A program made the position numbers and the translations under genes. A DNA stretch of 64,000 nt, from positions 4,032,001-4,096,000 of the forward strand of contig OZ244653.1 of NCBI GenBank assembly GCA_965218795.1. The letters are read 5' to 3'. Source of the DNA: a bacterium. Its GTDB lineage: Bacteria > UBA8248 > JACPRG01 > G963555815. Below the pieces are notes generated by a model. It ran no database searches. It saw only the letters and a program-made list of their open reading frames with translations, and was not told where the DNA came from. Positions 22,958 through 42,515 of this stretch are shown piece after piece (positions within the stretch are counted from its first letter, which is position 1; the number at the start of each line of letters is the position of its first letter).

Positions 22958-24361
22958 ATGAGCAATTTCGTCCGGGCTGGGTTGCGACCGCAAGTGAGTC
23001 GTCGTTGGATGTGGTGGATCGTCGCCCTGGCGTTGGGGTTGCGACTGTGGGTCGCCTTTGACGCCGGTAACGCTCCCCCGGTATCAGATGGCATCGAGTA
23101 TGACGGATACGCCGTTAACCTGCTTTCGGGGAAGGGTTATCAATATTTACACGAGGGAACCCTCCGCCGGTCCGACCGACTTCCCCTCTATCCCCTGCTG
23201 CTGGCGTCTTCCTATTCCATCTTCGGCCGGTGGTTCCTCCCCATCCGAGTCCTTCAAGCCATCCTGGGGGCCCTCACCGTATGGCTCCTGATCCGGTTGG
23301 CCGACCGAATATTTTCCGATCCGACTCCGCTCTTGGGAGGCCTTCTGGCGGCGGTGTATCCGGCCCTCTTGTGGTACTACGGACCCGGGTTCATCCTCAC
23401 GGAGACGGTCTTCATTTTCACGGTGATCCTGGCGGTCGAACGCGCCTCGGCGCTGCGGGAGGATCCCGCGGCGGGCCGCGCAATCGGTCTGGGGTTTGCA
23501 CTGGCGGCTTGCTCGCTCACCAAGGGCATGGGCAATCTGCTGGCCGTTTTCGTTTTCGGCTATCTGGCGCTCAGTTGTCCTTGGTCTTGGCGGATGAAGG
23601 GAGCGAGGCTGGGACTATCCGTTTTGATTATGATCGTGTGCCTCGCGCCCTGGGTGGTCCGCAATTACGATCTTCACGGCGGTCTGGTTTACAGCACGAA
23701 AGGAGGGCATGTCTTTTGGGAATCCAACAACCCGACGGCCCGAGGCGGGTGGGCGCCCGTCAATCTCCAGGACCAGGACCGGCGAGCCGATCTGTCCAAA
23801 CGCCAAAGGGCCTATCTTGCGGAGCGGCGGGAGCGCGTTCGCGCGGTTGCCCATGAAATCCGGGTCATTGAGGCACGGCATCCCTCCGAAGGGTTATCGG
23901 AGATCGAAGGAGACAGGGCCGCCCTGGCGAAGGGTTTGGATTTTCTGTCAAGCTATCCGTCGCGGATTCCCAGGTTATTCTTCCGAAAGCTGGCGCTCTT
24001 GTGGAACCCCATCGGGTCGGAGTTTTTCCTGGGTTATGCGCTTGTTCTGCCCTATGCGCTCTTGGGTTTATGGGCTGCGCGTCGGGTCTCCGGCGTAGGT
24101 ATCCTGTGGACCGGGATTTTATACTTCAATTTCATGGCGCTGGTCTTTTACGGACACCCCCGGTTTCGTCTCTATCTTGAGCCGTTCCTGATTCTCGCCG
24201 CGGCTGCGGGTCTATGGACCGCGGCGCGGGGTTGCCAAAGAAGGCCGGCCATTCTGGCGGCTCCCCTCGCACTATTGACTGTGACGCTCTGGGTCGCGAT
24301 GGACGTCGACGGGGCCCAGAGGATGCTCCAAGGCGCATTTTCCATCTTGGGATTGAGATGA
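22958..24361 (+). CDS. ArnT/PMT-like GT-C membrane glycosyltransferase
   Basis: DGIEY, R.PLYP, ILTET, PWVVRNY and PRFR motifs; many TM helices. Confidence 0.82.
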   Translation: MSNFVRAGLRPQVSRRWMWWIVALALGLRLWVAFDAGNAPPVSDGIEYDGYAVNLLSGKGYQYLHEGTLRRSDRLPLYPLLLASSYSIFGRWFLPIRVLQAILGALTVWLLIRLADRIFSDPTPLLGGLLAAVYPALLWYYGPGFILTETVFIFTVILAVERASALREDPAAGRAIGLGFALAACSLTKGMGNLLAVFVFGYLALSCPWSWRMKGARLGLSVLIMIVCLAPWVVRNYDLHGGLVYSTKGGHVFWESNNPTARGGWAPVNLQDQDRRADLSKRQRAYLAERRERVRAVAHEIRVIEARHPSEGLSEIEGDRAALAKGLDFLSSYPSRIPRLFFRKLALLWNPIGSEFFLGYALVLPYALLGLWAARRVSGVGILWTGILYFNFMALVFYGHPRFRLYLEPFLILAAAAGLWTAARGCQRRPAILAAPLALLTVTLWVAMDVDGAQRMLQGAFSILGLR

Positions 24362-26061: not shown

Positions 26062-27213
26062 TCAACGATTCTCTTGTCTTGGGAGTCTCGGAGTAAAGTT
26101 AAAATCTTCCCGTTTCGCGGTGAACTGGTAAGCTTGATTTGGACGCTTTGGGGAGCTTCCGGTCCAGTAGAGGTAATTCCACATGTGGTTGTAATGGCGC
26201 AAATGCCAAATCGGATATTGATAAACGAGATAATCGCTCCGGAGCGCAACGCCGAATGCCGCGAATGCCGAATGGCTCATGTCCCCGATGGCGCCTCCAG
26301 AGATGACGTCTTTGATCCGGTCGGAGGGGATTCGCGCCGGTAAGGACCTGGGCCCGCCCTTCGGTTCTATTCCAACTCGACGGTAAAAATTCTCAATCGT
26401 ACCCAGAGCCTTACGGAAAACGTCCTCGCTGGTTCCCGTGCTCTGATGAATGACCTGATCAAGCTCGTGGTGGTAGGCCTCGGGCTTGCGTCCGGTCTTT
26501 GAGTAGAAGGCCTGCGTCAACTCAAGAAAGCTCAGAGGAATCCCTCCGCGTTCGTAATGGGCGTTGTACAGGGGATCCATCAACACCCACTTTCGATGAT
26601 CGGACGACCAGGCCTCCGCCGTTATGTGACGGTATCCAATCACCTCGCGGGCTGGAATTCCGACCACGCCGGCCGCCTGCACGAATAGCGTCGCCGCCTC
26701 CCCGCACATCATCCGCTCGTTTCTTTGTATCCCCCGCAGGAGTGTGAAGCCTCCCTTGCCCTCACGGGTCAGCGAGTACGGAATCTTCGAGAGTGTCAGG
26801 GGCCAAACCTTTTCGTGCGTCCACTGACGAATACGAATGGCCTTGTTGAAATTGGAAGTCGTGGAAGCGACCAGGGCATCCAGTTTGTTCTGCTTGCGAA
26901 AGGCGACCGCCGACGGGTGGCTTGGGTCCAGCAAGTCGAAGCCCACGCTTGAACCGGACCTGACGGGTCGGATTCCCTCTTTCCAGTCGAACAGATAACT
27001 TGTCAGAACATTCTTTCGGAAGGCCAGATACCCCTTCAGGGGATTTTCGAAATAAGCGGCAAAATGCGCATAGGAAATGTTTGGATAATTTCCCCGGTAG
27101 TCGAGTCCGAAGAATGTAGACAATCCGACCAAGGCCAACAGGGTAATGGAGAGAAGCAGGCGTCTGCGGCTCGATCCGCTGGAAAGAAAAGCCGCATCGG
27201 ATTCATCGTTCAA
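26062..27213 (-). CDS. Membrane-anchored transglutaminase-like protein
   Basis: N-terminal TM; CGEAA..F......GIPAR...H...E......WVLMDP gives a Cys-His-Asp triad. Confidence 0.75.
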   Translation of the reverse strand: MNDESDAAFLSSGSSRRRLLLSITLLALVGLSTFFGLDYRGNYPNISYAHFAAYFENPLKGYLAFRKNVLTSYLFDWKEGIRPVRSGSSVGFDLLDPSHPSAVAFRKQNKLDALVASTTSNFNKAIRIRQWTHEKVWPLTLSKIPYSLTREGKGGFTLLRGIQRNERMMCGEAATLFVQAAGVVGIPAREVIGYRHITAEAWSSDHRKWVLMDPLYNAHYERGGIPLSFLELTQAFYSKTGRKPEAYHHELDQVIHQSTGTSEDVFRKALGTIENFYRRVGIEPKGGPRSLPARIPSDRIKDVISGGAIGDMSHSAFAAFGVALRSDYLVYQYPIWHLRHYNHMWNYLYWTGSSPKRPNQAYQFTAKREDFNFTPRLPRQENR

Positions 27214-27568: not shown

Positions 27569-28591
27569 ATGAGCGAAATACCGATCGAACCCATTCGCTG
27601 CATTCTCGCGGCGGAAATCGGGACCAATCACAACGGCGACCCCGAACGCGCCCGAAGGCTGATGGAAGTTGCCGCCGATTGCGGGTGTGATGCGGTAAAC
27701 TTCCACAAGCGGTCCCCGGACGCGGCATCCGGACAGGAGGCCCTCTGGCGAGCCCACGCCGCATTTCCTGAGCTGGGTTCGAACGCCCGGGAAGTGGTGC
27801 GCCGGTTGGGTTTGGATACGGAGGCGTTTCAGCGACTTCGGAATATGGCCAGGGGCCGCCTCGCATTTTGGGGAACCCCCATGGATATCGACTCCCTGGA
27901 GTTTCTGGATCCGATGGAGGTCGACGGATTTTTCGTTCCCGCGGGTTGCAATACGGACTTTCCGCTCCTCGAAGCGATATGCAGTCGAAATCGGCCAGTG
28001 TATGTTTCCACGGGCGCCTGTGACGCGGAGGAGGTTTCCGAAATCGTCCGTTTGGCCGGGAATTGCGAGTTCTTCCTGTTGCACGGCGTGGCCTGCTTTC
28101 CAACCCAGGCGGAAGAGAGCCAGCTGCAAATGCTCGGCTGGCTGAAGCAATTCGGGATGCCGCTGGGGTATGACGATCACGAGGATGGACATCTGACGGC
28201 TCCCGTGGCGGTGGCCAGAGGGGCGAGGGTCCTTCAAAAGCCTCTCACGTTGGACCGCCGGCTTCCCGGGGCGAATCACGTTTACAGCTGCGAGCCGGAC
28301 CAGTTGAAGCGATGGGTCGAGGCCGTCCGGCGAATCGAACAGGCCTTGTCGGGCGAAGCGGACAAGCGGCTGCTCCCCATAGAGATGGAATCATTCGACG
28401 ATGACCGCAGGGCCGTGGTCGCGGCGGTGGACATCCAGCAGGGATCGGTTCTGACGCGGGAGATGCTTTCTACCAAACCCCCTCTTCGGGGTCTGACCCC
28501 GCGGTTGCTTCCCAGGCTGTTGGGCCGAAAGACCTTGTACGACATCCGCAAGGATGAGCCGATCACCTTTGGTCTGGTAGAGGTGAAATGA
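27569..28591 (+). CDS. NeuB/SpsE-family protein with SAF domain and degenerate active site
   Basis: AEIGTNHNG, VSTG, TLDR and the SAF domain are present, but it reads AVNFH, FVPAG, GYDDH, LQKPLT, GANH and TKPP. Confidence 0.88.
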   Translation: MSEIPIEPIRCILAAEIGTNHNGDPERARRLMEVAADCGCDAVNFHKRSPDAASGQEALWRAHAAFPELGSNAREVVRRLGLDTEAFQRLRNMARGRLAFWGTPMDIDSLEFLDPMEVDGFFVPAGCNTDFPLLEAICSRNRPVYVSTGACDAEEVSEIVRLAGNCEFFLLHGVACFPTQAEESQLQMLGWLKQFGMPLGYDDHEDGHLTAPVAVARGARVLQKPLTLDRRLPGANHVYSCEPDQLKRWVEAVRRIEQALSGEADKRLLPIEMESFDDDRRAVVAAVDIQQGSVLTREMLSTKPPLRGLTPRLLPRLLGRKTLYDIRKDEPITFGLVEVK

Positions 28592-29286
28592 GCGGCCAGC
28601 CTCTGATTTCAATCGTCATCCGGGCCAAGAACGAGTCGGAGTGGCTCCGTCGCTGCCTTACGGCCGCCTCCCTGCAAGACTACCCCCGGCGGGAAATCAT
28701 TGTGGTGGATAACGAGTCGGACGACGGGACGGATGGAATCGCCCGCGATTACGACTGCCGGCTCATCACCATTCGTGAAAAGGAGTTCAGTTACGGGCGA
28801 GCGCTGAATGTGGGCGTTCAGGCATCGAAGGGTGAACTCATGGTCTGTCTGTCCGCGCATTGCGTGCCCGTCCATAACAAGTGGCTGGACCGCATGGTGG
28901 TCAATTTCGATCGACCGCAGGTTGCAGCGGTCTACGGCCGACAGGAACCGCTGCCGGATTCGCATATCTTCGACAAGCGGGATCTTTGGAACACGTTCGG
29001 CCTGGACCGGAAGATTCAGGTCAAGGACTCCTTTTTCCACAACGCCAATGCCATGCTTCGGCGGAGCGTCTGGGAGCGTATCCCCTTTGACGAAGAGCTG
29101 AACGGCGTGGAAGACCGGGACTGGGCCAAGAAGGTCATCGCGTCGGGCTATCACATCGTGTATGAGCCGCAGGCGAGCGTGTATCACCACCATGGCATCC
29201 ACCAGACGATGGATGTCGCGCGGGCGGAGCGGGTCGTTAAGATGATCGAGCTGATCAACGGTCGCGAACCCCTGTTCGATGATTGA
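28588..29286 (+). CDS. Glycosyltransferase family 2
   Basis: ISIVIRAKNE, VVDNESDDGT, LSAH, VYGRQ and VEDRDW motifs. Confidence 0.88.
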   Translation: MSGQPLISIVIRAKNESEWLRRCLTAASLQDYPRREIIVVDNESDDGTDGIARDYDCRLITIREKEFSYGRALNVGVQASKGELMVCLSAHCVPVHNKWLDRMVVNFDRPQVAAVYGRQEPLPDSHIFDKRDLWNTFGLDRKIQVKDSFFHNANAMLRRSVWERIPFDEELNGVEDRDWAKKVIASGYHIVYEPQASVYHHHGIHQTMDVARAERVVKMIELINGREPLFDD

Positions 29287-29416: not shown

Positions 29417-30175
29417 GTGAGCAAAGGGTCTGTGGTCGCGGTCATTCCCGCTCGAGGCGGGTCGAAAGGTCTCCCGAGAAAAAACCTCCTGCCTTTGGCT
29501 GGTCAACCCCTCATTGCCCACACCATTCAGGCGGCCGTCCGGGCCGAGCGCGTGGAACGGGTCATCGTCACGACGGATGATGAGGAGATCGCGGGGGTAG
29601 CGCGTGAATGGGGAGCCGAAACGCCGTTTCTGAGGCCGGAGAGCTACACCACCCCCTCGGGGATGACCGTCGAGTTGACTTCCGACCTGGCCACGACCGA
29701 AGACACCCTCGCCCATGCCTGCCACTGGTTCGCCGGACACGAAGGCGTGCCCATCGACATTTTGGTTTATCTCCAAACGACCGATGTCTTTCGCCGCCCG
29801 GGTTGGATCGATGAGGTCGTCCGGCGGCTCCAGGAGCATCCGGAGCTTGAGACGGCTTTTGCGGCGTTGAAGACCCACAAGAATTTTTGGCGTGGCGGGG
29901 AGGAAGGTGGCTTCGAGCCGCTGGGCGCATATGCGGGTCACGGCTCCCGCCAAACCAAAAAACCGACGTACCGGGAGGATACCGGCTTGGCCTGCGCCAC
30001 CCGGGCACGCCTACTGATGGAGGACCCGCCGCGACGGGTCGGGAAGGCGGTGGACATCCTCTGGTATGACGACCCCGCCGCCAATATCGACATTCATGAT
30101 GAGTTCGATCTGTGGCTGGCCGAGAAAGTCCTGACCGAATGGAAAGGGGCCGAGGGCTATGACATCGCCCGCTGA
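29417..30175 (+). CDS. Acylneuraminate cytidylyltransferase (NeuA/KdsB family)
   Basis: IPARGGSKGLPRKN, TTDD, PFLRP, SRQ and IDIHDEFD motifs. Confidence 0.92.
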   Translation: MSKGSVVAVIPARGGSKGLPRKNLLPLAGQPLIAHTIQAAVRAERVERVIVTTDDEEIAGVAREWGAETPFLRPESYTTPSGMTVELTSDLATTEDTLAHACHWFAGHEGVPIDILVYLQTTDVFRRPGWIDEVVRRLQEHPELETAFAALKTHKNFWRGGEEGGFEPLGAYAGHGSRQTKKPTYREDTGLACATRARLLMEDPPRRVGKAVDILWYDDPAANIDIHDEFDLWLAEKVLTEWKGAEGYDIAR

Positions 30176-30896
30176 GGATCCCAAGCGGCAGGTGATTGCG
30201 CTCGTGCCCGTTCGCGGAAGGCCGCTCTTCCGCGAATCACTGGGGAAGAAGCCGCTGCTGGTTCACACATTGGACGCGGCAAAGGAAAGCCAACGCGTCG
30301 AGAGAATTCTGGTGACGACCGAGGATCCGGAGATTGCGGATTTGGCGCGCAGGGGAGGCGCCGAAGCGCCATTTCTCCGGCCTCCGGATCTCGCCGAACC
30401 GGGCACTCCGCTGGAACGCGTGCTTCAGCATGCCGTCGCGTGGCTGGAAGACAATGAAGGCCGACCAGTCGATGTGGCCGTCCTTTTGGAGGTCTCGCAC
30501 CCCTTCCGGCCGCCCGGTCTGATCGATCGGATTGTGGACAGCCTTGTGGACCAGGATCTGGATTCCGTGTTCGTGGCGGTCGAGGAAACCGCGAATTTCT
30601 GGTACCAGGACAATCGGGGACTGACACCTATCGGAGAGAGCGGCCACGCTCCCAGGTCGGAACGGAAACCCATCTATCGTGAAATCAGCGGGATGGTTTG
30701 CGCGACGAAGGGCGAGGTGATCAAGCACGGGGACCGGCTGGGGAGGTTCGTGGGCATGGTCCCCATTCGGGGAATGGCGGGGCGGGTGGACGTCCGATCC
30801 CGTCTGGATCTGAAAATCGCCGAGACGCTTCTCCCTGCATGGGAGGCCGCGCTGGAGCGGGAGGCCGATGAAGATCCCTCCCTTGGAGTGCAGTAA
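30159..30896 (+). CDS. Degenerate cytidylyltransferase-like protein
   Basis: KPLL..T, VTTED, APFLRP and HPFR are retained; the ARGGSK..KN loop is replaced by VRGRPLFRES. Confidence 0.82.
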   Translation: MTSPAEDPKRQVIALVPVRGRPLFRESLGKKPLLVHTLDAAKESQRVERILVTTEDPEIADLARRGGAEAPFLRPPDLAEPGTPLERVLQHAVAWLEDNEGRPVDVAVLLEVSHPFRPPGLIDRIVDSLVDQDLDSVFVAVEETANFWYQDNRGLTPIGESGHAPRSERKPIYREISGMVCATKGEVIKHGDRLGRFVGMVPIRGMAGRVDVRSRLDLKIAETLLPAWEAALEREADEDPSLGVQ

Positions 30897-30898
30897 GA

Positions 30899-32266
30899 TT
30901 GAACGTCCACGACCTCAAACGGGAATGCCTGTTCATTCTGAAGGCCTACGCCTACCTGCCCGTTACTTTCTTGCGACGTGTGGTGCTTGGGAAGGACCCC
31001 TATTTTCGGCGGCTCTTCTGGAGCCGGTGGGGATTTCTGCCCAAGGAGCTGAAGAGGCTGGCGCAGAGCCGCCCGACCATCTGGATCGAGGCTCTTTCCG
31101 GTGGAGAAAACACTCAGATCGTTACCTTCGTCAAACGGTTGAGGGGCCTCTTTCCCGACGTCAACCTGATTCTTTCCACCAATAACCGTTATTCCTTTGA
31201 ATTTTCAAGCAAGCGGAAGGATCTGGATTTTGTATTTGACAGCCCGTGGGATCTGAGACACGTTGTCCGGAGGGGACTCCGGACGCTACGGCCCGCGGCG
31301 CTTCTCTTTATCGAAAATTGCAGCTATCCGGTCCTCTGCCGGGAGGCCCGGCGGGCCGGGGTGCGGACCATTCTCCTCAGCGGATTCATGAGCCACGGCT
31401 ACGAGCGGCATGAAATCGTCGCCCGCTCCATTCCCCGGGGCTTCCACCGGTTTCTCGACGACATTGGCGTAAAATCGGAGGCCGACGCGGACGGGTACCG
31501 CCGCCTCGGCGCACCGCCTAGAAAGATCCGGGTGGTCGGTGAGATGAAGTACGATCTGGATTTTCTCTGGCTGTCCGAGGAAGAGCGAAGGACGATGCGG
31601 GCCGATCTAGGGATCCGACCGGATGCCCCCGTTTTCGTCGCGGGGAGCATACGGGCCGGAGAGGACGAGATCATCCTCGAAGCATTCCGTCGCGTGCGGG
31701 AGGAATTCCCGGAATTCCGGCTGCTCATGGCCCCCAGTTATTACGGCAACACAATGAAGATGAAAGATGTTTTCCTCAAGGCCGGATTCGATTATCAGCG
31801 AAAGACCGCCCTGGATGCGGGCGAGCTGCCCAAAGATGCCGTCTTGATTGTCGACACCTTTGGTGAGTTGGCCCGCCTCTATGGTATCGGAACCGTCAAT
31901 TTTATCGGGGCGAGCATCATCCCGAAGGGGAAGCTGGCCTTCGGCCATAACCCCATTGAGCCCTTGATTCACGGACGGCCGCTATTGTTCGGGCCGCACA
32001 TGAATCACTGGGGGGAGATCACGGAAATCCTTCTTGATGCCGACCCGGGCCTTCAGGTTCGGACGGCTGAGGAAATGGCGGGCACGATCCTTCGCCTCTT
32101 GCGGGACCCGAATGCCATGCGGCGGGTCTGCCAAGCCGCGGATCAAGTGGTGGCACCGAATGCCGATGCGGTGGAAACCAACCTCGCGTTCGCAATTGAA
32201 AAAATCGGCGAGGCCGGGATTACGGCTCAGCCGGCCGAAGCGGTTGCCGGGCCTGTCTCTCCATAA
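30899..32266 (+). CDS. WaaA/KdtA-like (GT30) CMP-ulosonate transferase, divergent
   Basis: IWIEALSGGE, PWD, GEMKYD, DTFGEL, GHNPIEP and FGPHM motifs. Confidence 0.85.
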   Translation: MNVHDLKRECLFILKAYAYLPVTFLRRVVLGKDPYFRRLFWSRWGFLPKELKRLAQSRPTIWIEALSGGENTQIVTFVKRLRGLFPDVNLILSTNNRYSFEFSSKRKDLDFVFDSPWDLRHVVRRGLRTLRPAALLFIENCSYPVLCREARRAGVRTILLSGFMSHGYERHEIVARSIPRGFHRFLDDIGVKSEADADGYRRLGAPPRKIRVVGEMKYDLDFLWLSEEERRTMRADLGIRPDAPVFVAGSIRAGEDEIILEAFRRVREEFPEFRLLMAPSYYGNTMKMKDVFLKAGFDYQRKTALDAGELPKDAVLIVDTFGELARLYGIGTVNFIGASIIPKGKLAFGHNPIEPLIHGRPLLFGPHMNHWGEITEILLDADPGLQVRTAEEMAGTILRLLRDPNAMRRVCQAADQVVAPNADAVETNLAFAIEKIGEAGITAQPAEAVAGPVSP

Positions 32267-36364: not shown

Positions 36365-37753
36365 TTGGTCTCTCTGTCGCAGGACGCAGGGCCGGATGGG
36401 CTCCCCTCAAGATATCGGGCCGGGCGGGCGCTGTTTCTGGACCTCTTCTCTCTGGCATTGCTGGTCCGGCTTCTTTTTTTGGTGCCGGTGCTGTTGGCAT
36501 TTGTCCGAGGCGATCCACCTTATCTCGGGGGCGATTGGGGGGCGTTTCATGATTGGGGGGAGAAGATCCTCTCAGGAGAGGGGATGGTCACGGACGGCCG
36601 GCCCACGGCCGAATACACCCCGCTGTACCCCTTGTTCATCGCGGGTGTCTATGCGATCACCGACTCCGCTCCCTGGGCGGTGCTCTTGGCGCAAACGGTC
36701 CTGGGTGCCCTGGCCTGTCCAATCGTAGCTGCGGCCGCGAAGGATCTGGTGGCGCATCCGGTCGGAGGACGGTACGCCGCAGCAACGGCGGGAATCCTGC
36801 ACGCTCTCTACCCGCCACTGATCAAGTCCGAGCAGCTTGTCATGACCGAGGCCCTGTTTGCTTTCTGGACGGCCATTTGCCTCTGGATTCTGATCCGGCT
36901 GGGACGCCGGATGACACTCGGTGGAATGGCGTTGCTGGGCTTGGTCGGTGCCCTGGGTTCGTTGACGAAGCCCTCCCTGGCGATTCTGCCGTTTGTGGCC
37001 GGCGGGGCCCTGGCCGTGAAGGATTGTATCCGGACCCGGCGCTTCGGGCCTTCATTCCTCAAGGTGTTGGTTCTGGTGGTTGTCTTCGCAGGCGTGCTCT
37101 CGCCATGGGTTGCGAGAAACTACAAGGCCTTCGGCCGCTTCGTGCCGCTCGGGACGGAGGGCGGCATCGTCTTTTATGACGGCTTGAACCTGAAGGAGGG
37201 CTGGAAACCGGGCTTCCGTACCCACGACCAGATCACAGCGCAGGCGGCGAAGATCGAGCCGGAGCCCGACCGCAGCGCCTTTCTGATGCGCGCCGGCTGG
37301 AAGAAACTCACGGCCAATCCGGGCCATTTGCCCTTGCTCATCGGTGTCAAGACGCTCTTTTTCTGGAGCCCATTCGACTGGGAGATCTTTCTGAACGGCG
37401 CGTACAGCTTCGGATTCGTTTTTCTCCTGCCCTTCGCCGTTTGCGCTTTCCTCCGGTTGGACTCCCCGGATCGGCCGGGCCGGGTGGACATGTGGAACCG
37501 CGTGGGCCTCTGGCCGGTTTGGGGCATGGTGGCCTACTTCTTCGCCCTCGGGATTGTCTTCATCGGTTCGCCCCGTTTGCGGCTGCCGTGTGAAATCGGC
37601 ATCCTGGTTCTGGCAGCGTTGGGGATGGTCAGGCTCATTCAGACGAAGACCCGGCGGACCTTTTGGACGGCATCCGCGGTTTGGCTGGCGGCAAACGTTG
37701 TGATGTTCTATTTGTCTGATGCACTTCGCTCATGGTTGAAGATCGCGTTATAA
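36365..37753 (+). CDS. ArnT/PMT-like GT-C membrane glycosyltransferase
   Basis: PLYP, MTEAL, PWVARNY and PRLRLP motifs; similar to 22958-24361. Confidence 0.82.
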   Translation: MVSLSQDAGPDGLPSRYRAGRALFLDLFSLALLVRLLFLVPVLLAFVRGDPPYLGGDWGAFHDWGEKILSGEGMVTDGRPTAEYTPLYPLFIAGVYAITDSAPWAVLLAQTVLGALACPIVAAAAKDLVAHPVGGRYAAATAGILHALYPPLIKSEQLVMTEALFAFWTAICLWILIRLGRRMTLGGMALLGLVGALGSLTKPSLAILPFVAGGALAVKDCIRTRRFGPSFLKVLVLVVVFAGVLSPWVARNYKAFGRFVPLGTEGGIVFYDGLNLKEGWKPGFRTHDQITAQAAKIEPEPDRSAFLMRAGWKKLTANPGHLPLLIGVKTLFFWSPFDWEIFLNGAYSFGFVFLLPFAVCAFLRLDSPDRPGRVDMWNRVGLWPVWGMVAYFFALGIVFIGSPRLRLPCEIGILVLAALGMVRLIQTKTRRTFWTASAVWLAANVVMFYLSDALRSWLKIAL

Positions 37754-37772: not shown

Positions 37773-38801
37773 ATGGCCGAGGCAATATTGCATGGGATGG
37801 GGGGTGGATCGCTGGGCTGGAAAAGGAAAAACGTCTTGGTGACCGGAGCCGGGGGATTCGTGGGAAGCCACCTGGTGGAGCTGCTGTTGCGGGAGGGTGC
37901 CCACGTCCGGGGACTCGTCCGCTACAACTCGCGGAATGCATCGGGCTTCCTGTCCGAATTTGCTGCGGATTATCCGGATACGCTGGAAATCACCGCCGGT
38001 GACCTGAACGCCGAGGAAACGATACGTGCGGCCATGAAGGGGCAGGAGGTGGTCTTTCATCTGGCGGCCCTGATCGGAATCCCGTACTCATACCTTCATC
38101 CGGCGGAGGTGGTCCAGACCAACGTCGTCGGAACGCTGAACGTGCTTTTGGCGGCCCGGGATGAAGGGGTGGAGCGCGTTGTTCACACTTCGACCAGCGA
38201 GGTCTATGGCTCTGCGATTTCCGTGCCCATCGCTGAAAGCCATCCCCTCCAGCCTCAGTCGCCTTATTCGGCGACTAAAATCGGCGCGGATGCCATTGCC
38301 CTGAGCTTCCACAACGCCTTCGATCTGCCTGTGGCCGTCATCCGACCGTTCAATGTGTACGGGCCCCGCCAGTCGGCTCGGGCGGTGATCCCGGCGATCA
38401 TTGTCCAGGCGCTGGCGAGGGACGTCGTCAGGCTGGGCGCGACGCATCCGCGGCGGGACCTGACGTTCGTGGAAGATACCGCGAGGGGCTTCCTGGCCGT
38501 GGGGGGATCGACCGAGGCCGTTGGGCAGGTCACCAACATCGGGTCGGGGTTCGAGATCACGATCGGCGAACTGGTGGAGAGGATCATCGATAGGATCGGC
38601 CGTCCCGTGAAGCTGGAGACCGAAGAATCCCGCCTGCGGCCCGGCAGGAGCGAAGTCACGCGTCTGTGGGCGTATACTAAGAAGGCCAAGGAATTATTGG
38701 GCTGGGAGCCGCAGGTTTCCCTCGACCAGGGCCTCGACCGGACCATTGCGTATATTCGGGAGCGCCTGCCTGAATACAATCCCGACCGTTACACTGTGTA
38801 G
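37773..38801 (+). CDS. NDP-sugar 4,6-dehydratase/epimerase (LegB-like)
   Basis: TGAGGFVG, LAALIGIPYSY, TSTSEVYG, PQSPYSATK and YGPRQSARAVIP motifs; start uncertain. Confidence 0.88.
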   Translation: MAEAILHGMGGGSLGWKRKNVLVTGAGGFVGSHLVELLLREGAHVRGLVRYNSRNASGFLSEFAADYPDTLEITAGDLNAEETIRAAMKGQEVVFHLAALIGIPYSYLHPAEVVQTNVVGTLNVLLAARDEGVERVVHTSTSEVYGSAISVPIAESHPLQPQSPYSATKIGADAIALSFHNAFDLPVAVIRPFNVYGPRQSARAVIPAIIVQALARDVVRLGATHPRRDLTFVEDTARGFLAVGGSTEAVGQVTNIGSGFEITIGELVERIIDRIGRPVKLETEESRLRPGRSEVTRLWAYTKKAKELLGWEPQVSLDQGLDRTIAYIRERLPEYNPDRYTV

Positions 38802-38913
38802 ACGGACGGGAGACTTTTTACGTCGAAGCTGGCATCGGGATATCGTGCCTCCCCATTGTTTGTCATGGAGGAAGTATCGATAGCCTTGTGCAATTTGTCC
38901 GATGCCGGCTTCC

Positions 38914-38942
38914 TTGAATCTGGAAATCCATGGATTTAGATT
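38914..38942 (+). promoter_or_regulatory. Promoter with a perfect 14-bp palindrome in its spacer
   Basis: TTGAAT-17 bp-TAGATT; AAATCCATGGATTT at 38924-38937. Confidence 0.45.
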
Positions 38943-39120
38943 GTGTTTGAGAATGTAGGATATCTCTTCGGGTTGTGGTGTGATCGAGTGGAGGATAATT
39001 GCGGCCAATCGGGCGGCCAAACGCGAGGGTGCCGGTTGCGTTGAAAAGCGGGCGACCCAGGCCTCCCTTCAGGGCGGGTCAGAGGTTGCTCCTCCAGGTT
39101 ATTTCCGTGGAAATCTCAAG

Positions 39121-39825
39121 ATGCGTGCGGTGATTCTGGCAGGCGGCCTCGGCACGAGACTCCGCCCTTTGACATTTTCCATTCCCAAACCGCTCCTTCC
39201 GGTGGGCGAACATCCGATCCTGGAGCTTATCCTCAATCGGCTGATGGAGTTTGACTTTGAGAATTTCATCTTCTCCGTTGGATATCGTGCGGAACTGATC
39301 GAGACCTACTTCGGCGACGGCTCCCGGTTTGGAATCCGCATTCACTACCTCAAAGAGGAAGAGCCTACGGGAACTGCAGGCTGCCTCGAACTGATGAGAC
39401 GAAATTTTGATGTGGCCGAAGATGAGACCTTTCTCCTCATGAACGGCGACATTCTGACCGAGCTCGATTTCAGCCGGTTCATTCATCATCACGCCAAAGA
39501 ACAATTTGAGTTGACCGTGGGAGTGAAGGAAATCGATAGGCAGCTTCCCTACGGCGTCTTAGAGGAAAAGGACGGCCTCGTCCGCCGAATCATTGAGAAG
39601 CCCGTGTCACGCTATCCTATATCCGCCGGCATCTATCTCCTCCAAGGGAGCACCCTCCCGTTCATTCCCGGGGATACGCACTTCACCATCCCGGATCTCG
39701 TGGAGAGCCTGGCTTCGAAGGGCCGGCGCGTGGGGAGTTACCTGATCGAAGAGTACTGGCTGGCCGTCGAGCATCAAGAAGACATGGAAAAGGCGCGGTC
39801 TCGCGTCGAGGGCGGTTCTGGATGA
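39121..39825 (+). CDS. Sugar-phosphate nucleotidyltransferase
   Basis: ILAGGLGTRLRPLT..PKPL, GTAG, MNGD and EKP motifs. Confidence 0.92.
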   Translation: MRAVILAGGLGTRLRPLTFSIPKPLLPVGEHPILELILNRLMEFDFENFIFSVGYRAELIETYFGDGSRFGIRIHYLKEEEPTGTAGCLELMRRNFDVAEDETFLLMNGDILTELDFSRFIHHHAKEQFELTVGVKEIDRQLPYGVLEEKDGLVRRIIEKPVSRYPISAGIYLLQGSTLPFIPGDTHFTIPDLVESLASKGRRVGSYLIEEYWLAVEHQEDMEKARSRVEGGSG

Positions 39826-40559: not shown

Positions 40560-42515
40560 GTGATTCCAGAAGCCGGAGTTTCGTTCAGAGGGGTTGGCCG
40601 GGTGGATGAATGGCTTACCGAATGCCGAGTGGCCCGCTGGTTGGGGTTGAGCCAGCGGTTGCGCCGGTGGCGGGAGGGGGACGGATGGTTATCCCCGGCG
40701 ACTACGGAGCCGCCGGACCGAACCGAATGGCTGAGAGGCGGCGTCATTGTCTCCTCGCTTTTCTGGCTGATCCGGACATTCTTCTTGTGGCTTGGTCGGC
40801 AGGCGAGTGAGGGTCTTTGGGGCAGGGGGTGGCGCGCGTTGGCCGCCGGATTTGCCGTTGCACCACAACGGACGCTGGCGTCCTTCCTTCTTTCGGGACT
40901 CGGAGTCAACGGCGCTCTCCTCCTGATGACCGGGATTTCCGTACAATCCGAGGGGATTCTGGTCCGTGGCATCCTGATGATTCTTGGATTGTCGGCCGTC
41001 TGGTTCAAAGAAGGGGCCCTGGTCCGCTGGTGGCGGAGTTGGTGGGTCCGGCGTCTGTTTGGATCAAGGGACCGTGGGGAGGTAGCTCCTCCAACGGATT
41101 CGAAGGCTTCTTCTTCGAGCGATCCAGCTTCTTTCTTCGTACCGATTTTGGCCGGATCGTTGACCGGTCTTCTGTGGTGGTATTCCCCGGGCACCACGTT
41201 CATTGGGATACTGTTGGCCGGACTGGCGATTGGGTTGAAGAACAAAGGTCTCCGGGATAACGGGAGATATTTGACGCGCCTGTTTTGGGTGGCCCTTGGA
41301 TTACGGGTGGGTTTGGTGACGCTTGCCTACTTTTGGGCTGTTCTGACCGGGAGATTTTATCCGCACTCGGCCCTCGTTGATTTTCAGATTCAGATGCCGA
41401 TGCTCTTCGACGACGGCGGATACTTTTCGGCCCGGGCTTGGGCCACGAGTCAGCTTTGGCGGGGGGCGGAAGTCTGGCCCCATGCGTTGTTCGAGATCCG
41501 CCAAGTGTATGGGGCTTCTTCTTATCTCTATGTTCCGGCTCTGTTCTTTTACGTTTTCGGAGAGGATGCCCTCATTTCCGTACGGCTGATCAACGCCTTG
41601 CTCGGGGCCTGTCTGCCGCTCATGGTGTTTGGTTTGACCAGAGATTTGTTCGGAACCCGGGCCGCCCGGCTCGCGTCCGGAATCATGTGTGTATACCCTT
41701 CATTGGTGGTATGGAACCTGGATTTGCTCAAGGATTCGCTCTTCGTTACAATTTTTTTTGGTGTCATTTGGTGTTTGGTCCGGTTTCAACGGAAATACAG
41801 GACTGGCTACTACCTGGCATCACTGGCCGGAACCGCGATCTTGATGTCCATCCGTCTCAATCTCGGCGCGATCGCGTTGGGGGCGGCTCTTCTCGCGTGG
41901 ATTCCATTCCTTTGGAAATCGGTGATTTGCCGGAGTCCCACCCGGGTGTTGCTCGCCATCGTCCTTTTGGTGGGCGTGGTCCTTTCTCCGCCGATTCAAA
42001 GGGAGATGGGCGACTGGCTCTATCGGCTTTTCTCGGTGCAGCGAGGCGTGACTCAGACCCCAGGGCGCGCGAAGTACGCGCTTTGGGACAGAAGACTTTA
42101 TATTCATTCGGCCTCCGCCCCTTTCCTGGAGCAGATCCGGCCCGGCGAGGTGGTTCGCGCGTTTGCTCTCAGCCAGTATCATTTTTGGCTTGAACCGGTC
42201 CCGTGGGAACACCGTACGCGGATGCAACGACTGGTCCTCCCGCAAATGATTCTTTGGTACGGGATCTTGTTGATCGGCCTGGCGGGGGTCTGGCGTCTGA
42301 GGCGGGATCTCCAGGGCTTATGGATACTGTTGATGGTGACCGGCTTGCTGAGCTTCATCATCGGTATGGTCAGTGGAAGCGTGGGAACAGTCTTTCGTCA
42401 CCGCGATTTGTTGACGCCGATTTGGATCCTTCTGGCAGCCGGCGGGCTTGCCGGAAGAGTCATCCCGAGTGTCCGGGCCGCATCAGTTGATCCGGCAAAA
42501 CCGGAGACCTCCTGA
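40560..42515 (+). CDS. Large polytopic membrane protein, GT-C (GT39-like) transferase/polymerase
   Basis: Many TM helices; DDGGY, YPS.....LLKD and terminal FRHR motifs. Confidence 0.65.
   Translation: MIPEAGVSFRGVGRVDEWLTECRVARWLGLSQRLRRWREGDGWLSPATTEPPDRTEWLRGGVIVSSLFWLIRTFFLWLGRQASEGLWGRGWRALAAGFAVAPQRTLASFLLSGLGVNGALLLMTGISVQSEGILVRGILMILGLSAVWFKEGALVRWWRSWWVRRLFGSRDRGEVAPPTDSKASSSSDPASFFVPILAGSLTGLLWWYSPGTTFIGILLAGLAIGLKNKGLRDNGRYLTRLFWVALGLRVGLVTLAYFWAVLTGRFYPHSALVDFQIQMPMLFDDGGYFSARAWATSQLWRGAEVWPHALFEIRQVYGASSYLYVPALFFYVFGEDALISVRLINALLGACLPLMVFGLTRDLFGTRAARLASGIMCVYPSLVVWNLDLLKDSLFVTIFFGVIWCLVRFQRKYRTGYYLASLAGTAILMSIRLNLGAIALGAALLAWIPFLWKSVICRSPTRVLLAIVLLVGVVLSPPIQREMGDWLYRLFSVQRGVTQTPGRAKYALWDRRLYIHSASAPFLEQIRPGEVVRAFALSQYHFWLEPVPWEHRTRMQRLVLPQMILWYGILLIGLAGVWRLRRDLQGLWILLMVTGLLSFIIGMVSGSVGTVFRHRDLLTPIWILLAAGGLAGRVIPSVRAASVDPAKPETS

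Follow-up and report, generated by a model that had tools for sequence, protein, structure and literature searches.

What appears to be the first gene of an operon in the 64,000-nucleotide stretch of bacterial DNA analysed here (the window) encodes a NeuB-like protein (pseudo-NeuB) that has kept its fold and lost most of its active site. Degenerate NeuB look-alikes of this kind constitute a widespread family with a single origin. On balance, the sequence comparisons suggest that the dead NeuB has been kept because it serves the short GT2 protein encoded immediately downstream as an accessory subunit, within a CMP-ulosonate pathway.

Pseudo-NeuB is encoded by a single open frame of 340 aa, in which Pfam recognised a NeuB domain (residues 31-262) and a SAF domain (residues 280-334; PF03102 and PF08666). 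A structure model (mean pLDDT 79.5) was obtained, and a Foldseek search with it returned PseI and NeuB as top matches; Pfam, the model and Foldseek thus all identified the TIM barrel and C-terminal SAF domain of a NeuB-family synthase. Fold and domain order are those of the NeuB/PseI/LegI/SpsE synthases (PDB 1xuu, 8h2c and 1vli), whose genes likewise have CMP-synthetase genes alongside. Pseudo-NeuB differs from these enzymes in lacking eight of 11 ligand residues, in carrying a new SAF motif and in scoring far under the NCBIfam cut-offs (TIGR03569 and TIGR03586; 206.5 against 399.65 for the NeuB model, 149.2 against 340.25 for the PseI model), and its surroundings differ from theirs in that no NeuC or PseG match was present among the scanned ORFs of the window and related loci. 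An intact sister, from locus L004, is also under the NCBIfam cut-off (267.8). The protein is 340-341 aa long in nine of the ten closest proteins, and its nearest named relative (74-76% identity) is labelled Nitrospinota. The stop codon overlaps the GT2 start as ATGA (28588-28591), and a search for a promoter-like site upstream of the gene found none. Using four intact NeuB homologues as tblastn queries, no second NeuB was found in the 64-kb window. An earlier, sequence-only reading of this DNA had described an unbroken, full-length NeuB homologue overlapping the next gene, with no canonical neuB in the window, and each of these points held. The features are listed below.

Table 1. Features of the window and of related loci (locus coordinates are those of each locus).
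Feature	Position	Strand	Remarks
Pseudo-NeuB, 340 aa, apparent first operon gene	27569..28591	+	Divergent neighbour 355 nt away
Degenerate TIM barrel, about aa 10-262	27596..28354	+	3/11 ligand residues left; purifying selection in the window lineage
SAF domain, proposed docking or lid module	28400..28588	+	Family-specific R307, Y324, T333-F334-G335
Short GT2, GT-A fold, 232 aa, proposed partner	28588..29286	+	S[AG]HC replaces DxD; invariant ED, HxHG
NeuA1, intact-looking CMP-ulosonate synthetase homologue	29417..30175	+	PARGGSKG..KN motif kept
NeuA2, second, degenerate cytidylyltransferase homologue	30159..30896	+	No GGSK..KN (CTP-binding) loop; GT2-fused in many other genomes
WaaA/KdtA-like (GT30-type) transferase, candidate CMP-ulosonate user	30899..32266	+	In 5/10 related loci
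DAHP-synthase-like, KPLTFPY	L010 2047-2931; L005 7977-8840; L006 9097-9960; L008 7958-8821		Inside glycan clusters
Shikimate-dehydrogenase-like	L005 8842-9957; L006 7285-8385; L008 8820-9890; L010 2925-4058		YAKSP at substrate loop; long insertion

Active-site residues are given in the N. meningitidis numbering of the sequence-only reading, which was verified by counting along PDB 4ipi in a profile alignment. Three of the 11 PEP, metal and sugar ligands remain in the window protein: E25 (E16), S154 (S147) and H215 (H204). The others are replaced (K53 by N44, Q55 by H46, K129 by F122, S132 by A125, S213 by D202, E234 by Q223, H236 by P225 and D247 by N236), as is R314 of the SAF domain (P304). 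H236, which with H215 binds the metal in NeuB according to an excerpt of PMC11339185, is therefore a proline here, and S154 alone is kept from the PEP ligands K53, K129, S132, S154 and S213. From the catalytic acids E25, E134 and E234 and the sugar ligands Q55 and D247 (roles as in an excerpt of PMC8208679), only E25 is left; E134 is gone from the window protein and the intact sisters alike. An excerpt of PMC6795526 was a further source for the ligand roles. With these replacements, pseudo-NeuB is very probably unable to condense PEP. The PEP, metal and sugar substitutions in the sequence-only reading were all recovered; its use of the R314 change (KRP to KPP) as evidence did not survive. R314 is missing from the window protein, from 5/5 intact sisters and from 56/193 other homologues, and eukaryotic NanS is another protein without it (PMC8208679, excerpt). 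Its loss is therefore uninformative on inactivation and was rejected as a sign of it.

Two homologue searches yielded 230 proteins, of which 30 degenerate ones clustered (FastTree support 0.99), or 29 once a fragment had been removed; the fragments P0016 and P0080 were left out of residue counts. In a tree built without the ligand columns and without residues 300 onwards, the degenerate set (25 of the 29 rows) formed one clade with support 96/91, its neighbours being five intact proteins and P0083. H236 was kept in 0/29 members of the clade, as against 195/195 other homologues and 5/5 intact sisters. Mean retention in the clade was 0.32 over the 11 ligand columns and 0.79 over 28 further columns conserved in the family (a purely descriptive Mann-Whitney test gave p=9e-5), a difference that points to more than drift. 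Replacements of H236 were scattered (R in 15, P in nine, G in two, and K, A and V), as were those at other sites. E25 and H215, which the sequence-only reading had correctly listed as kept in the window, were retained in only 5/28 and 8/29 members and are thus incidental rather than a family trait. Its proline at H236 and asparagine at D247 were likewise confirmed for the window protein but are atypical of its closest relatives, in which Arg and Asp prevail at these sites.

The closest intact relatives are a 'KFQKR / KIASHS / GFDH' NeuB subfamily (P0011-P0016, and L004) with 40-43% identity to pseudo-NeuB. This subfamily shares with pseudo-NeuB the SAF motif, the absence of R314 and E134 and the accompanying GT2-NeuA1-NeuA2 genes, and differs in having kept all 11 ligands (5/5 full-length proteins). 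Searches of plasmids for NeuB returned distant relatives only (<=39%), and an Atlas search returned generic NeuB and DAHP clusters only.

The dN/dS of pseudo-NeuB was 0.08-0.14 against four relatives and 0.08-0.18 in the seven of ten pairs for which it could be computed, three pairs with saturated dS being dropped. These values were in the range of the neighbouring genes, for which WaaA pairs with L009 were left out as invalid because of an indel. The SAF domain had a lower dN than the barrel in 10/10 pairs, although barrel dN was also low in the window lineage, which still conserves the barrel in full. A pseudoenzyme is expected to combine a selective loss of catalytic residues with a kept fold and purifying selection, and all three are seen here. 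The suggestion of a maintained pseudoenzyme made in the sequence-only reading is accordingly supported by residue loss, by the single 29-member clade and by the dN/dS comparison that it had called for.

The degenerate proteins and the intact sisters share SAF residues that are rare in other homologues: R307 (28/34 family members against 1% of other homologues), Y324 (31/33 against 1%) and F334 (33/33 against 6%), the last flanked by T333 and G335, which are also family-specific (TFG). A genome scan with the SAF motif, using a profile built from a 24-sequence alignment, matched 44 stretches, of which 11 were confirmed, giving 10 loci labelled across six or more phyla (the labels include Nitrospinota, Hyphomicrobiales, Gemmatimonadaceae, Planctomycetales, Methylomirabilia, Acidimicrobiia and the group of Omnitrophota). 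The window and L001, L002, L003 and L009 represent one lineage, and L004 is the only intact locus among those compared. A short GT2 gene lies directly 3' of the NeuB-like or SAF gene in 10/10 loci, with a stop/start overlap in 9/10; as the loci were selected by SAF motif, this linkage shows that the SAF implies the GT2 and not the reverse. NeuA1 is present in 9/10 loci and NeuA2 in 10/10. Two irregularities, a C-run frameshift at the GT2 start of L003 (11002-11030) and a split pseudo-NeuB in L008 (9947-10910), are probably sequencing errors in the bins. In L004 (1-206 and 9968-17637), the end of another NeuB gene, canonical in appearance, precedes the intact ITFG-type NeuB by about 10 kb, and nearby radical SAM, methyltransferase, acetyltransferase, carbamoyltransferase and sulfotransferase genes suggest a heavily decorated sugar.

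The GT2 proteins of the loci are 52-90% identical to that of the window and have no DxD, with S89 and H91 invariant. Fold and PDB searches grouped the window GT2 with GT-A enzymes (13-21% identity) but gave no hint of its function; plasmid searches gave distant relatives only (<=41%) and a phage search gave no match. Scoring of 8000 candidates gave 2824 long GT2 homologues at E<=1e-50. The best 120 of these comprised 94 GT2-NeuA2 fusions and 26 with NeuB-derived sequence in front, and 23 of the 26 had a SAF match behind a shrunken or unrecognisable barrel. The three excluded were P0259 and P0320, in which a frameshift seems to have garbled the SAF, and P0276, where a remnant of the barrel precedes the GT2 and no SAF match was obtained, a case that counts against the SAF being the part that GT2 needs. 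The 23 SAF-GT2 fusions occupied three positions in the tree of GT2 proteins, where the starred branches force at least three changes. The 36 SAF-linked GT2s formed one branch apart from 93 NeuA2-fused GT2s (support 98), a split that counts as one evolutionary event and not many. The model of one natural fusion, P0287 (23 sequences; pLDDT 85.5 and pTM 0.85 over 440 aa, about half of it GT2), is consistent with an N-terminal part that packs in a fixed way against the GT2, although a short covalent linker can itself raise pTM. Living genomes can be arranged as a series of barrel erosion, from the intact NeuB of L004 through the full-length dead copy of the window and the eroded barrels fused to GT2 to L010, where only an 88-aa SAF gene is left, overlapping the GT2 start. 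Fusions of NeuB with other partners were also seen: two barrels with a cytidylyltransferase in P0094, and a NeuA-like domain, a methyltransferase or an unrelated GT2 in P0088, P0095, P0096 and P0111.

Other degenerate lineages have a candidate replacement beside the dead copy. DAHP-synthase-like (DAHPS-like), shikimate-dehydrogenase-like (SDH-like) and Gfo/Idh/MocA genes lie just upstream in L005, L006, L008 and L010, the SDH-like gene of L006 being in one frame with a Gfo/Idh/MocA domain, and in L007 the tail of an SDH-like gene is visible at the contig edge. An SDH-like gene is thus upstream in 5/5 other degenerate lineages, four of which have the DAHPS-like gene too. Neither gene is present in the intact L004, or in the DNA compared for the window, L001, L002, L003 and L009, so that displacement of NeuB is visible in five of six degenerate lineages and not in that of the window. 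The DAHPS-like proteins of the other loci are 64-67% identical to that of L010, and plasmid searches found distant relatives only (<=52%). The L010 gene passes the cut-off for type I-beta DAHP synthase (TIGR01361; 308 against 267.75), as do the other three, and the protein keeps the PEP and metal motifs of DAHP synthase in alignment, residues whose roles are established in that enzyme. It differs in lying in a glycan cluster and in having KPLTFPY where A. pernix DAHPS (PDB 1vs1) has KPRTSPY. The KPRT arginine of DAHP synthase binds the aldose phosphate. As this arginine is missing, the DAHPS-like substrate is likely a non-phosphorylated aldose, as for NeuB. The DAHPS-like protein is a likely replacement catalyst for the dead NeuB. 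Since it passes the DAHP synthase family cut-off, the subfamily is probably misannotated as aromatic biosynthesis.

Judged by product names, DAHP and KDO8P synthases give the C4 configuration opposite to that given by NeuB, and C4 of an ulosonate corresponds topologically to the carbon that is oxidised in quinate. It can be speculated from these two points that the SDH-like and Gfo oxidoreductases fix C4, a speculation weakened by the finding that the Gfo genes of the loci fall into two subfamilies sharing about 29% identity, which also told against a single orthologous Gfo partner. A literature search on C4 stereochemistry and the role of KPRT found nothing usable.

The explanation we favour is that pseudo-NeuB persists as an accessory subunit, its SAF domain probably docking on or capping the GT2. 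In NeuB, a domain-swapped dimer, the SAF domain caps the active site of the other monomer (PMC6795526, excerpt), and the proposed capping of GT2 echoes this arrangement. The module of NeuB-like protein, short GT2, active NeuA1 and dead NeuA2 would make or use a CMP-activated ulosonic acid for a surface glycan. The SAF domain of an intact ancestor of the L004 type would have gained a new surface contacting GT2; the aldol step would later have passed to another enzyme, most plausibly the DAHPS-like protein of the four other lineages; the barrel active site would then have decayed, with the SAF kept as the part needed by GT2 and later fused to it or left as a lone gene. In the window lineage the whole barrel probably stays as a dimerising scaffold that presents the SAF, and its conservation there means that it may do more. 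NeuA1 and the WaaA-like transferase would make and transfer the CMP-ulosonate. NeuA2, whose CTP-binding loop was kept in 0/94 GT2-fused copies, would be a second dead enzyme of the same operon. The sequence-only reading had named neither the overlapping GT2 gene as the likely partner, nor NeuA2 as dead, nor the candidate replacement synthase of related loci.

PseG and NeuC are GT-fold hydrolases that, in known pathways, release the aldose on which the synthase acts. Their genes, like that of the window GT2, are linked to synthase and cytidylyltransferase genes, but their fold is GT-B and not GT-A. The GT2 may similarly free an aldose from a nucleotide sugar, or it may glycosylate an ulosonate held by NeuA2. 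A more extensive proposal can be offered only tentatively, and as a whole it is rather doubtful: an ulosonic-acid pathway, present in at least six phyla, where an offshoot of DAHP synthase acting on a non-phosphorylated aldose has taken the place of NeuB, where an SDH offshoot and a Gfo/Idh/MocA enzyme invert C4, and where the SAF of the dead NeuB forms the lid of a GT-A enzyme, which either releases the aldose from a nucleotide sugar or works on NeuA2-held CMP-ulosonate.

The partner of the pseudoenzyme could instead be NeuA1, NeuA2 or the DAHPS-like synthase, or the barrel could be a sugar-binding sensor. In favour of such readings are the presence of NeuA2 in all and of NeuA1 in nearly all loci, the lack of a SAF lid in DAHP synthases (PMC6795526, excerpt), the barrel conservation in the window lineage and the SAF-less P0276. 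All the NeuB/SAF fusions recovered are nevertheless to GT2 (the search query was itself GT2), the SAF motif is older than the DAHPS-like gene, being present in intact L004, and a barrel acting as sensor could not have been lost the way it was in L010. These alternatives are therefore considered unlikely.

The sequence-only reading had also allowed for an enzyme with new chemistry. A barrel enzyme independent of metal and PEP, at least in the window lineage, would account for the low barrel dN and for the residues shared by the eight closest proteins, all of which have N at K53 together with D at S213, and most of which have H46, Q223 and R225 (the set N44, H46, D202, Q223, R225). The window protein itself departs from this set with P225, and has N236, and H204 varies (H, R, Q, Y) even within the ten closest proteins. 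No new catalytic residue set shared across the degenerate clade emerged, and relatives have lost the barrel in part or altogether. Such scattered replacements fit a pseudoenzyme rather than new chemistry, which is very unlikely.

The other suggestion of that reading, a heterodimer in which pseudo-NeuB would be the inactive partner of an intact NeuB from another part of the genome, draws on the domain-swapped NeuB dimer in which each SAF caps the other monomer (PMC6795526, excerpt) and on the lack of a visible synthase in the window lineage. It is highly improbable: tblastn over the DNA of the window and of the degenerate loci found no intact NeuB (9/9 loci without one), and the GT2 fusions would be left unexplained. 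A functionless relic, decaying and kept only through translational coupling, might be read into the barrel erosion of relatives and into L008, where the gene may have a frameshift or a split start, but it is largely refuted by dN/dS values like those of the neighbouring genes, by the near-constant length of the closest proteins and by the new conserved SAF residues, and has next to no likelihood.

A full-text literature search, covering the best-ranked matches and few subscription journals, found no description of a dead NeuB family, a GT2-SAF link or a KPLTF synthase. Pseudoenzymes that act as partners are already known as a kind; a dead NeuB family with a GT2 link would be new. Unassigned CMP-ulosonates are reported in environmental bacteria in an excerpt of the SugarBase preprint, while an excerpt of PMC12531865 supplied background of a general kind. 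If the interpretation is correct, the ulosonate synthases include a defined pseudoenzyme family whose history is visible in living genomes, and the SAF domain gains a testable job outside NeuB catalysis. The conserved GT2 family and the DAHP-synthase variant would then be entry points to an acidic surface sugar, and the annotation 'sialic acid synthase', which several such genes carry, would wrongly predict sialic-acid synthesis.

Other genes of the window also concern glycans. Three PMT_2 (GT-C) membrane glycosyltransferases (22958-24361, 36365-37753 and 40560-42515, + strand), together with an O-antigen-ligase-like gene and a MurJ-like flippase, point to lipid-linked or protein glycosylation in the cluster. 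No LegC or NeuC match was found among the scanned window ORFs; a LegB-like 4,6-dehydratase (427 bits, cut-off 475) and a nucleotidyltransferase at 37773-39825 (+) are a possible source of precursor sugar. Divergent from the operon is a transglutaminase-like gene (26062-27213, - strand), a homologue of which (57%) has the same place in L001, and L002 has a PMT-like gene at this position.
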